Positions 15,432 through 17,414 of a DNA stretch of 64,000 bases are shown in pieces. The notes under the pieces were generated by a model that was given only the letters and a program-made list of their open reading frames with translations, had not been told where the DNA came from and did not search any database. Source of the DNA: Candidatus Woesearchaeota archaeon (GTDB lineage: Archaea > Nanobdellota > Nanobdellia > Woesearchaeales > JAHWIC01); NCBI GenBank assembly GCA_019322485.1, contig JAHWIK010000015.1, positions 23,216-87,215 on the forward strand, given 5' to 3'. Position numbers and translations under genes: made by a program. Each line of letters opens with the position of its first letter. The first letter of the stretch is position 1.

Positions 15432-17414
15432 CTACCTCCTTAAAGTACCTTTCTTGACAAGATCTTTAGCTAATTTCTCTACATCCTTACTTTCTGTTTT
15501 TTGTTTTCTTTCTGCTAATTCTTGAGCAGTAGGAACGTCACCTTTAAATTCTGCTTTTCCCTTATTTTCAGCCAATTCCTGGATACTAGGGACATCACCA
15601 GGCTCTTTTTCCTTCTTTTCTGCCAGTTCATGAGCAGAAGGGACATCCACCCTTGGCTTAAGCTTTCCTTTTTGTTTGGTTAACTCTTGAATACTAGGAA
15701 CATGAATTCTAGGCTTTGGTTCAGGTTTTGGAGGTTCTTTCTTTACTTCTTCTATTAATTTTTCTGCAGTTGGTTCTGTTCCTTGGGCAAACTGTGTTGC
15801 CTGCTCAACCATCTTTGCTGTTTTGTCTTCTGTTTTGATTGCCTTTTCAACCTGCTTTTCCTCTTTTTTAATCTCTTTTTCTAAAACCTCAGCTGCCTTT
15901 TCAATCTCTTCTTTTTTCTCCGGCTCTTTAATCTCTTCTTTCTTTGCTTCTTTTTTAATCTCTTTTATCGTTTCTTCGGCTTCTTTCTTGACCTCTTTTA
16001 TTTCAGCCTCTTTCTTTGGGAAAGCTGTTCCCATCACTTCAGGTTTTTGTGGCTCTTGTATGACTCTCTTCTCTTCTACCTTCTTTGCTATCTGCTCGTC
16101 TACCTGTATCTCTTTTTCAACCTGCTTCTCTTCCTTTTCAACCTCTTTCTTCAGCTCTTTTGCTTCTTCAGGCTTGATTTCTTCTTTTTTTGCCAGTCCA
16201 TCAATCTCTTCCTTTATCTCCTTTGCCTCTTGCTTTAGCTCTTTGATTACTTCTTCCTTTTTTTCCTCGGTTGGCTTCTCTTCTGGCTTTGGTTCTTCTT
16301 TTTTCTCCACTACTGGCATCTCTTTCTTTACTTCAACTTCTGTTGGTGGTTTTACCTCAACAGCCTTTTCCTCAACCTTAGGTTCAGGTTTCGGCTCTTC
16401 TTTTTTCTCTTCAGCCTTAGGCTTTTCTTCTGCTTTCGGCTCTTCCTTAGGTTTTTCCTCTGCCTTTGGAGGTTCTGGCTTAGGCTCTTCAGCAGGTTTC
16501 TCTTCAGGCTTCTTTTCCTCAGCCTTAGGCTCTTCTTTTTTCTCTTCAGCCTTTTCTGCTGTTTCAATGTTTGCACTTGATTTTAAGCCAAGCATTCCTC
16601 TTTCAGCCTTTGCCAGTAAATCATCAATAATCCCTTTATCAATAATACCTTCAGATAATCCTAAAGCCTTTGCCTCTCTGAATGCTTTTGCAAGCAATGG
16701 TTCAATAGTGGTTTTTGTTGGATAGCCAACATAAATAGCAACATTAAATGCACCGGATGCAGCTGCTCTCAAGTCAGCGTTGAATTTGTCTTCATCAATA
16801 GCAAGAACATCCTTTCCGAAGATTACCCCGTTTTCATATGTTGCAGTAAGGTCCAGGCCAACTTCCATTGGCTGTATATTGAATCTTATCAGCAACTCAG
16901 CTACTTTTGGCTTTATCTTCTCTCCTTCCTTAACAACAACAGAATCCTCTTTTACTGCTACTTTTCCGCCCTCAACACCGCATTTTATCCCTACTGCACC
17001 AAGTTCACCGATTATTGGTCCTGGCATGAATGATGTAGGGCCAGCAGGTATAACAATATCCTTTGGAGAGGTCTGTCCTGGCTTTGCAGGAGCAGTACTC
17101 TTGCTTTTTTGCAGTGTTTTGTATAATTTGAAAGGATTTTCATTTGTGAATAATAAAGCAGGCATTCCTTTTAGGTGAGGCACTAATTGTTCAATTCCTG
17201 GCTTCTTTTCTTTTGCATTCTCAATCGCTATCTTCATTATTCTCCTTTTTGTCATGAACATAGTGACCTTATCTCTTAACTGCTGCTTCATCTTCTGCAG
17301 CTGCGGAGCTGGAAGATTCTCCATATTAACAGCTCCAACAATAGGATACTTACTAATTAAATCAACAATCTCCTTTACAATCTTCTTCTTTTTGTCTGAT
17401 ACGTGAGCTTTCAT
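15432..17414 (-). CDS. rpl10: 50S ribosomal stalk protein P0 (uL10) carrying a ~370-aa low-complexity and repeat extension
   Basis: The N-terminal ~290 aa look like a P0 fold ('[36 protein letters not shown]'). Then come an EKP-rich tract and 4-5 'DVPSxxELAExK' repeats. Confidence 0.85.

Follow-up and report, generated by a model that had tools for sequence, protein, structure and literature searches.

An archaeal ribosomal stalk protein P0 with a long C-terminal extension that ends in conserved motifs in place of the factor-binding peptide

We analysed a 64,000-nucleotide stretch of DNA (hereafter the window; contig JAHWIK010000015.1, positions 23,216 to 87,215) from a Candidatus Woesearchaeota archaeon and focused on its gene for the ribosomal stalk protein P0 (uL10). 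The C-terminal tail of the P-stalk is among the most conserved short peptides of archaeal and eukaryotic translation. It ends in ...GLxALFG in archaea and in ...MGFGLFD in eukaryotes and recruits aEF1A, aEF2, aIF5B and ABCE1, in eukaryotes also GCN2 and ribosome-inactivating toxins; the textbook archaeal stalk shows seven identical copies. Archaeal P0 normally shares the C-terminal site of its partner P1, and the aP0(aP1)6 complex has seven such sites (PMC7768734). The P0 of the window has an ordinary body and lacks this peptide. Instead, it carries a long extension that ends in strongly conserved motifs of a different kind.

P0 body and extension

The P0 reading frame starts with ATG and runs through 660 residues with 0 internal stops (Table 1). 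Pfam places the rRNA-binding domain Ribosomal_L10 (PF00466) at residues 6–104 (82.9 bits; cut-off, 22.8) and the P0-specific insertion RL10P_insert (PF17777) at residues 110–180 (62.7 bits; cut-off, 29.1). In a sequence search of the PDB, residues 2–279 of Pyrococcus horikoshii P0 (3A1Y_G) aligned with residues 3–277 of the window protein (E = 1e-70), and the ribosomal P0 of P. furiosus (339 residues; 4V6U) aligned with residues 3–330 (E = 8e-74). Archaeal P0 chains in the PDB measure 339–348 residues, so that the window protein is ~1.9 times longer. A preliminary description of this DNA had called the protein about twice the normal length, with an ordinary P0 at residues ~1–290. Both statements hold, as the two Pfam domains are in place and the first ~280 residues match archaeal P0 end to end, through residue 279 of the P. 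horikoshii protein. An AlphaFold2 (AF2) model of the full-length protein, built on 79 relatives, reached predicted local distance difference test (pLDDT) values of 90–97 across residues 10–210, and the body is 86% identical to that of the closest relative. Because the PDB alignments run end to end and include the three spine helices, residues 1–284 represent a complete, ordinary P0. By homology, the spine helices are the probable binding sites for three P1 dimers. The window protein is uL10/P0 by every feature except one: its C-terminal region is not homologous to that of P1.

The remaining 376 residues (285–660) form an extension without counterpart in solved P0 structures; the 339-residue P. 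furiosus P0 has ~60 residues past the spine. Beyond residue 290 the sequence contains 26% E, 24% K and 10% P, in agreement with the ~270 residues of E/K/P-rich low-complexity sequence noted earlier behind the P0 domain. The first part of the extension is a spacer with 19% P, 35% D+E and 27% K+R, to which AF2 assigns pLDDT values of 31–41 and no secondary structure, and whose length differs among relatives. It is followed by an E/K-rich segment (31% D+E, 26% K+R), which is predicted from composition and AF2 to form helices with pLDDT values of 75–93. Part of this segment has heptad-like hydrophobic spacing, and coiled-coil pairing is possible. The segment contains a tandem duplication of ~80 residues (385–458 and 467–548), with a Smith–Waterman self-score of 162; shuffled sequences scored 90 +/- 9 and at most 129. 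A degenerate version of the motif called block 1 below lies inside the first copy. The duplication is common to the window P0 and its closest relative; the next two relatives are without one of the copies. In composition and AF2 prediction, the two parts resemble the PEVK-like spacers and ER/K single alpha-helices of proteins such as titin, myosins and caldesmon, in that the P/E/K part appears extended and disordered and the E/K helices are predicted without tertiary packing.

The C-terminal part of the extension holds three types of motif. Block 1 is a helix-turn-helix-like element with the family consensus TDxKVAEMVxKTKKFxxGxxPTAExLxEEV, in which M and V are invariant and K nearly so. Behind it, four VP[ST]xxEL motifs (hereafter VPS units) start at residues 572, 591, 608 and 627, spaced by 17–19 residues. 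When the extension was shuffled 100,000 times with its composition preserved, 120 shuffles contained one such motif and 0 contained two, against four observed. The units are only 56–74% identical at the DNA level, and Tandem Repeats Finder did not call them in the DNA, reporting only short low-complexity periodicities. This suggests that they are old protein-level repeats and not the product of a recent duplication or of the assembly. The sequence P-[ST]-x-x-E-L combines the N-capping box of a helix with a hydrophobic staple, and K-K-G caps helices at their C-terminal end; given these signals, each VPS unit is expected to form a helix with defined ends.

The protein closes with a basic amphipathic helix, which corresponds to the family motif E-x-L-x-x-x-L-x-K-K-G-T-L-R-K and is conserved more strongly than any other part of the extension. 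The logo of 97 instances reads K-E-V-E-D-L-A-K-E-L-I-K-K-G-T-L-R-K, with E90, L97, L100, K80, K96, G100, T94, L100 and R98 as its conserved positions. AF2 predicts a helix from residue 630 to 655 (pLDDT 82–95) that stops at Gly656. The helical core has a hydrophobic moment of 0.67. The terminal helix has a net charge of +4 (P1 tail, -1) and a mean hydrophobicity of -0.48 (P1 tail, -0.02). Four and a half repeats had been counted in this region. The four are the VPS units, while the supposed half repeat is the distinct terminal-helix motif and not a degenerate copy. The preliminary description was right that the protein has no LFG-type tail: the motif [LMF]x[LAG][LM]F[GD] is absent from the entire window P0, and the basic end shows neither the acidic stretch nor the hydrophobic L-x-x-L-F-G/D terminus of the factor-binding peptide. 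The internal duplication and the expansion of the VPS units to four copies together account for the length of 660 residues.

Table 1. Features of the P0 locus and of other parts of the window, with window coordinates (aa, amino acids; ORF, open reading frame).
Feature	Coordinates	Strand	Basis and remarks
P0 (uL10) gene, complete	15432..17414	-	660 codons + stop; ORF list, Pfam, PDB P0 matches
P0: canonical body, aa 1-284	16563..17414	-	uL10 rRNA-binding domain, archaeal/eukaryotic insertion domain, putative P1-binding spine
P0: three spine helices, aa 208-280 (208-228, 234-254, 260-280)	16575..16793	-	AF2 secondary structure; alignment to P. horikoshii P0 spine
P0: P/E/K-rich disordered spacer, aa 285-380 (~96 aa)	16275..16562	-	AF2; composition
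P0: E/K-rich helical segment, aa 381-543	15786..16274	-	AF2 helices 381-409, 415-452, 467-492, 498-543; pLDDT up to 93
P0: block 1, helix-turn-helix-like, aa 528-559	15738..15833	-	family alignment; overlaps end of helical segment
P0: four VP[ST]xxEL(A/T)xxK units, aa 569-641	15492..15710	-	helix N-cap box S/T-x-x-E after Pro
P0: terminal amphipathic basic helix, aa 642-660	15435..15491	-	family consensus KEVEDLAKELIKKGTLRK; ends KKGTLRR
P1 stalk protein, 106 aa	15107..15427	-	Pfam Ribosomal_60s 56.4 bits; canonical C-terminus ...GLGALFG
L1 (uL1), 281 aa, first gene of L1-P0-P1 cluster	17411..18256	-	Pfam Ribosomal_L1 aa 15-211
L1: K/E/P-rich C-terminal tail, ~65 aa	17414-17611		motifs none
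S24e: K/E/P-rich tail, ~55 aa	13772-13933		motifs none
Rpo7: K/E/P-rich tail, ~40 aa	13169-13291		motifs none
S27ae: K/E/P-rich tail, ~15 aa	14110-14157		motifs none
DUF7121 protein, 297 aa	14163-15056	-	K/E-rich coiled coil; weak SMC/Rad50 coiled-coil similarity; directly 3' of P1
Cys-rich protein, 421 aa	18349-19614	-	N-terminal hydrophobic segment; Pfam none; upstream of L1
ORF, 2016 aa	26013-32063	-	Pfam matches none at E <= 0.001
ORF, 864 aa	9911-12505	-	Pfam matches none at E <= 0.001

Conservation of the extension and its motifs

A homology search with the window P0 returned 584 matches, and family statistics were calculated on the best 120 of these together with the window protein (121 proteins). 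The 120 homologues are 363–661 residues long (median 513), carry the database label '50S ribosomal protein L10' and, where named, come from Candidatus Woesearchaeota or Nanoarchaeota. The LFG-type motif was found in 0 of the 121 proteins. By contrast, 82 of the 121 have [KR][KR]G[ST]L[RK] no more than 6 residues from the C-terminus, 74 contain VP[ST]xx[ED]L (logo V63 P100 S61/T38 x x E57/D42 L100) and 69 match a regular expression for block 1. Copy numbers range from 0 to 2 for KKGTLR and from 0 to 4 for the VPS unit, which is usually present once; the four copies of the window protein are the maximum seen. A subclade of shorter P0s (363–377 residues) ends in a diverged form of the two-part end, ...VPTREELEANIKMREKQKEVKEVEKIYHDIHKKAIEE..., and in one subclade the order of the motifs is reversed: LFxxLQKKGTLRG...(about 40 aa)...EVPSAxDLxxKK-COOH. 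The extension and both of its motifs are thus found in many independent assemblies, as a check proposed with the preliminary description had asked.

The motifs behave like short linear motifs. Logos, alignments and AF2 show short conserved cores within a poorly conserved, disordered region, and in the full-length model the surroundings of the VPS units have pLDDT values under 50. The motifs differ in copy number, order and spacing and also occur on uL22 and eS19 (see below). A folded repeat of the TPR type is not indicated, as the spacing is highly variable in relatives and an AF2 model of the C-terminal module alone had a predicted template modelling score (pTM) of only 0.23, with isolated helices, each starting with the Ser/Thr of one VPS unit. 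When the PDB was searched with a profile of this module, only an insignificant TPR-like helix-cap resemblance appeared (E = 0.03).

P1 has kept what P0 has lost. The window P1 ends in the LFG-type tail ...GLGALFG, as had been noted earlier, and the canonical tail is present on P1 at every related locus examined. When one genome per GTDB species was scanned for the terminal peptide, 15 of 40 stretches were confirmed, and at all 15 loci P0 is followed by a P1 that ends in AAAGLG[AS]LFG. A scan of Joint Genome Institute metagenomes with a degenerate DNA pattern gave 68 matches, 61 of them true tails and 7 chance occurrences. Wherever the reading frame of a true tail was complete on its left side it encoded P0, except for one uL22 (locus L079) and one hybrid of an FtsY-like protein and P0 (L068). 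Nine GTDB records of metagenome-assembled genomes (L005–L007, L009–L011, L015, L016, L018) bear the title 'uncultured Methanosarcinales archaeon' and contain P0 and P1 of the Woesearchaeota type with the KKGTLRK tail; their titles look like placeholders or mislabels.

The closest relative of the window P0 (616 residues) aligns across the full helical segment including the duplication, and the next two measure 522–540 residues. The exact window protein was looked up in public assemblies and was not found there. Comparing the window gene with two relatives, we found that 26–47% of the conserved codons among the final 35 residues differ synonymously, a rate similar to the 37–56% in the N-terminal domain. 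Such turnover at conserved residues of the extension demonstrates that the frame is translated and under purifying selection. A search of the literature on stalk proteins and ribosomal-protein extensions of DPANN archaea and Woesearchaeota found no description of the P0 tail; a preprint on the hibernation factor Hib and a paper by Cavalier-Smith turned out to be unrelated to it.

Motifs and tails on other proteins

We searched 1.84 billion representative proteins with a profile of the C-terminal module. The 48 matches comprise full-length P0s, many truncated P0 fragments and a few proteins with other N-termini. Three of the latter withstood inspection, as did a fourth carrier that came from the metagenome scan. 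The carrier from that scan is a uL22 (L079; contig Ga0209541_10063984, 4.1 kb, 1387–2190, forward strand; TIGR01038, 99 bits; cut-off, 79.85), which lies between uS19 and uS3 in its native uL2-uS19-uL22-uS3 setting, the S10 operon. This protein has a K/E/H-rich extension of ~130 residues with two SPAEL units, ending in ...SPAELSPAELLKQVQAKAAALNNKQTQTDVHSVENLYDELQKKGTLRK; its end, ...SPAELSPAELLKQ...SVENLYDELQKKGTLRK, closes with the terminal helix of the P0 tail, SVENLYDELQKKGTLRK. Two eS19 proteins of related organisms (L003 and protein P0166) end in block 1 and a VPS-like unit. The gene for the first of these (L003, 17–451, forward strand; PF01090, 63 bits) precedes a gene for a PDCD5-like dsDNA-binding protein, its native context, and the protein closes with ...KSKVEQLAKKTKEFAQGKTPTAEKLVKEAKKE...VPTAAELAAKKEKQNG (also given as ...KVEQLAKKTKEFAQGKTPTAEKLVKEAKKE...VPTAAELAAKKEKQNG), that is, block 1 and a VPS unit with VPTAAELAAKK at the very end. 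The second ends in ...MPAAELAAKKE. The occurrence of the terminal helix at the end of uL22 in the native S10 operon, and of block 1 and VPS elements at the end of eS19, is new.

A further carrier is an RPA-like protein with a winged helix and one OB fold, which matches P. abyssi RPA at E = 2e-27 and is encoded at 335–994 on the forward strand of a 1.1-kb contig (L002) with no P1 downstream. Its end reads ...TIPSAHDLKKQKE...KEIEDLAKELVRKGTLRK, also given as ...IPSAHDLKKQKE...KEIEDLAKELVRKGTLRK. As the coverage of this contig is 1.4x, the protein may be either a genuine non-ribosomal carrier or a chimera. Other candidates were rejected or are doubtful. Apparent stand-alone module proteins (72–128 residues, MVxxTKKF... 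starts) are explained by gene callers that start at the Met of block 1 on truncated contigs. An Fmt-like N-terminus (P0131), those of P0132, P0143 and P0164 and a transmembrane one (P0150) are cut within block 1 or belong to tiny fragments, and fit assembly chimeras best.

A new repeated peptide on the stalk had been proposed from the window alone. The peptide is there, but its motifs are not specific to the stalk, as they also occur on uL22 and eS19, and in most relatives the VPS unit is not repeated. uL22 lies near the tunnel exit and eS19 on the head of the small (30S) subunit. These carriers suggest that a partner of the motifs is probably wanted at ribosomes generally and not at the GTPase centre specifically.

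Low-complexity tails without these motifs are found on other products of the same gene cluster. P0 sits between L1 and P1, all on the reverse strand, with 4 nucleotides between the P0 stop and the P1 start, likewise in relatives, and the order L1-P0-P1-DUF7121 coiled-coil protein-S27ae-S24e-Spt4-Rpo7 is identical in the window and in relatives. L1, S24e, S27ae and Rpo7 of the window end in K/E/P-rich tails, in which a scan for the VPS and KKGTLR motifs was negative. P0, L1, S24e and S27ae measure 660, 281, 134 and 73 residues in the window, and 372, 226, 98 and 60 residues in one relative whose P0 is short; another relative has a 577-residue P0 together with an S24e of 144 and an S27ae of 80 residues. 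A gene for a protein of ~296 residues occupies the DUF7121 position at every related locus inspected (L087 and L089; partial in L068 and L090). L11 lies upstream of L1 in many archaea; the window and the listed related loci (L001, L087, L089) do not have it beside L1. The window contains no tRNA genes according to ARAGORN and no Rfam families at the gathering threshold; a Cys-rich protein and two long ORFs elsewhere in it are listed in Table 1.

Some P0 linkers share sequence with a putative FtsY. On contig L091 (145–573), directly behind prefoldin, a gene fragment begins with MFKFLKDKLKG... and continues with ...EKKGFFSKLKEKI... and an N-domain-like sequence. From gene order and motifs we read it as the signal recognition particle (SRP) receptor FtsY; searches of Pfam and the PDB with the FtsY-like fragments were negative and could not confirm this, no FtsY/SRP54 GTPase motif was present in any fetched locus, and a homology search with the FtsY-like region recovered only three fragments. 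The putative A-domain of L091 and the linkers of many P0 relatives have the exact strings KEEKVLEEEKEIIKEEEKL and LEKERIEKEKELEKVE in common (16–19 residues; maximum in the shuffle null, 9). Two hybrid genes (L068, 601–1293; L090, 494–982) lead from an MFKFLKxKLKG... N-terminus through such an E/K element to the P0 tail, followed by P1. From its nucleotide 102 on, L068 shares 97% of its DNA letters with a normal P0 locus, and both hybrids are most simply explained as assembly chimeras formed at the shared element. The sharing of E/K strings itself seems real in those lineages. BLASTP found no similarity between the FtsY-like fragment and the window P0 (longest common string, 5 residues), which means that this lead does not apply to the window protein; of the second shared element, the family alignment shows no more than a degenerate version.

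Possible functions of the extension

The protein is a genuine, lineage-typical P0 of a Woesearchaeota-type DPANN archaeon in which a long, modular extension has taken the place of the ancestral hinge and LFG tail. The best explanation of this extension, to which we assign a probability of roughly one half, is a long-reach tether that would present a second, non-canonical docking peptide to a partner. As elsewhere in archaea, the P0 body would attach to 23S rRNA and bind three P1 dimers. Since P1 has retained ...GLGALFG, six canonical tails would remain on the stalk, in place of the textbook seven, a change in number that the preliminary description had anticipated, and could continue to pool aEF1A, aEF2, aIF5B and ABCE1. 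The end of P0 would then act as a modular 'fishing line', with the spacer and ~160 residues of E/K helices leading to block 1, the four VPS units and the terminal helix. This array of short linear motifs may be a tethered ligand for a partner other than a reader of the acidic/hydrophobic LFG peptide, and the four VPS copies would raise its local valency. As upper bounds, the P/E/K spacer would have a contour length of ~35 nm, the helices ~24 nm and the motif region as much as ~40 nm. With these dimensions the P0 end could reach anywhere on or around a ribosome of 25 nm, and the array might sweep tens of nanometres around it.

Several observations weigh against this explanation. L1, S24e, S27ae and Rpo7 also have K/E/P tails, and tail lengths co-vary with P0 length across genomes; the bulk of the linker length may therefore reflect a genome-wide low-complexity trend on which the conserved motifs ride. 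S/T-x-x-E and K-K-G are textbook capping signals, and their conservation could be partly structural instead of marking an interface. The scarcity of the module among the representative proteins implies a narrow clade, and the carriers other than P0 are few, each found on a single short metagenome contig. Taken further, the first two of these points lead to an account in which the extension is mostly neutral low-complexity growth, part of a tendency across the genome for ribosomal and other nucleic-acid-binding proteins to gain K/E/P-rich tails, and at most an entropic or solubility 'bristle', with conserved residues that keep capped helices and no specific partner. This account is in keeping with the motif-free tails on L1 (+65 residues), S24e (+55), S27ae and Rpo7, with the short L1, S24e and S27ae alongside the 372-residue P0 and the long S24e and S27ae alongside the 577-residue P0, with the 363–661-residue range of P0 itself, and with the standard helix caps formed by K-K-G and the Pro-preceded S/T-x-x-E. 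It leaves unexplained, however, why nine positions of the terminal helix are near-invariant over 97 instances despite synonymous turnover, why the motifs are kept while linker length and sequence change freely, and why the terminal helix also ends another ribosomal protein, uL22, in its native context. Moreover, the tails of L1 and S24e are free of motifs, and low complexity alone does not generate them. We consider predominantly neutral growth unlikely. An artefact, with a long reading frame falsely created in the low-complexity tract by a frameshift, an overlooked stop or a misassembly, is effectively refuted. Purine-rich low-complexity DNA is error-prone, and contigs such as L068, L090, P0131 and P0132 are evidently chimeric, but the same architecture with an in-frame conserved C-terminal end recurs in far more than 100 independent assemblies. 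The alignment to the closest relative over the whole length, the synonymous pattern, which fits a coding frame, and the P1 start 4 nucleotides past the P0 stop, as in relatives, point the same way; the frameshift or stop behind the P0 domain that had been envisaged earlier is not borne out.

A selected tail could nevertheless serve the old purpose. The KKGTLRK helix, alone or together with the VPS units, might be a diverged and functionally equivalent factor-binding tail, so that translational GTPases or ABCE1 are still recruited, perhaps through grooves that evolved along with it, and seven sites still work. It occupies the same location, at the C-terminal end of P0 past a flexible linker, and shares with the canonical peptide the form of a short helix that has a leucine face (its hydrophobic moment is 0.67, and L/L/I/L are conserved); stalk tails bind several factors via helical hydrophobic contacts (PMC4267659, PMC5887453, PMC6125642). 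Its chemistry is the opposite of that of the P1 tail, however, in both charge and mean hydrophobicity, and it has no similarity to GLGALFG, which is strictly conserved on P1 of the same genomes and to which the factor grooves are presumably still tuned. The helix is also present on uL22, distant from the GTPase centre. Functional equivalence thus seems quite unlikely to us. A role as a membrane or translocon tether, in which an extension related to the FtsY A-domain holds ribosomes at the membrane or at SecYEG in very small cells, is suggested by the FtsY-like fragment directly after prefoldin on L091, by the exact 16–19-residue strings that it shares with the P0 linkers of many relatives, and by the two short contigs that fuse an FtsY-like N-terminus to the P0 tail at the shared element. 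We regard this role as very improbable for the window protein, which has none of the shared strings (longest common substring 5, BLASTP negative). The FtsY identity comes from gene order and motifs, with negative Pfam and PDB searches, the shared element lies in the E/K spacer and not in the conserved terminal motifs, and the hybrid contigs are most simply chimeras. The terminal helix is, in addition, too polar for typical membrane targeting (mean hydrophobicity -0.3 to -0.5).

The long-reach tether, which we prefer, can be set against known systems. Compared with P. horikoshii aP0 in aP0(aP1)6 (3A1Y; 4V6U for P. furiosus), the first 280 residues (E = 1e-70 to 8e-74), the L1-P0-P1 cluster and the canonical P1 partner are alike; the canonical protein of ~340 residues ends in the peptide of aP1, whereas the window P0 has its 376-residue extension with basic terminal motifs. 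Like the P-stalk peptide, the window tail is a short helix-forming peptide on a flexible linker with a ribosome anchor, with a few strongly conserved hydrophobic residues and multivalency. Unlike it, the tail has an unrelated sequence, the opposite charge and more than one type of motif, its linker is far longer (376 against ~60 residues), and its motifs also occur on the non-stalk proteins uL22 and eS19. The hinge and C-terminal domain of bacterial bL12 offer another parallel, since the number of factor-recruiting elements varies between lineages there too, with 4, 6 or 8 copies of stalk proteins. In that case the copy number of one element varies, while in the window P0 one of seven elements is exchanged. 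The FtsY A-domain resembles P0 linkers of relatives, through the two E/K elements identical over 16–19 residues, but has no detectable similarity to the window P0, and the likeness concerns the spacer and not the terminal motifs.

More tentatively, VP[ST]xxEL and E-x-L-x-x-x-L-x-KKGTLRK may form a portable pair, a Woesearchaeal 'docking code' that is displayed on long E/K/P tethers of P0, uL22, eS19 and possibly the RPA-like protein, recruits a single hub partner, and in P0 displaced the universal factor-binding peptide. This broader scheme is possible, though we hold it to be doubtful. The hub may be an SRP/FtsY-membrane component, a chaperone or a kinase; the last is suggested by the resemblance of S/T-x-x-E and K-K-G-T-L-R-K to acidophilic and basophilic kinase sites, which would echo the phospho-regulated tail of the eukaryotic P-stalk.

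An uncultured, genome-reduced DPANN clade has thus kept the P-stalk peptide on P1 and exchanged it on P0 for an equally conserved one on a far longer tether. A clade-wide swap of the P0 tail with the P1 tail retained would be unexpected to a stalk specialist, even though the clade is narrow and the function of the new tail is deduced from its sequence. For annotators, it means that '50S ribosomal protein L10' entries of 450–660 residues in these lineages are real and are not fusions or assembly errors. The tail points to a ribosome-associated partner in organisms that have not yet been grown, for which the 17-residue peptide could be used as bait, and the swap can serve as a natural experiment on the number of canonical tails that a stalk requires.

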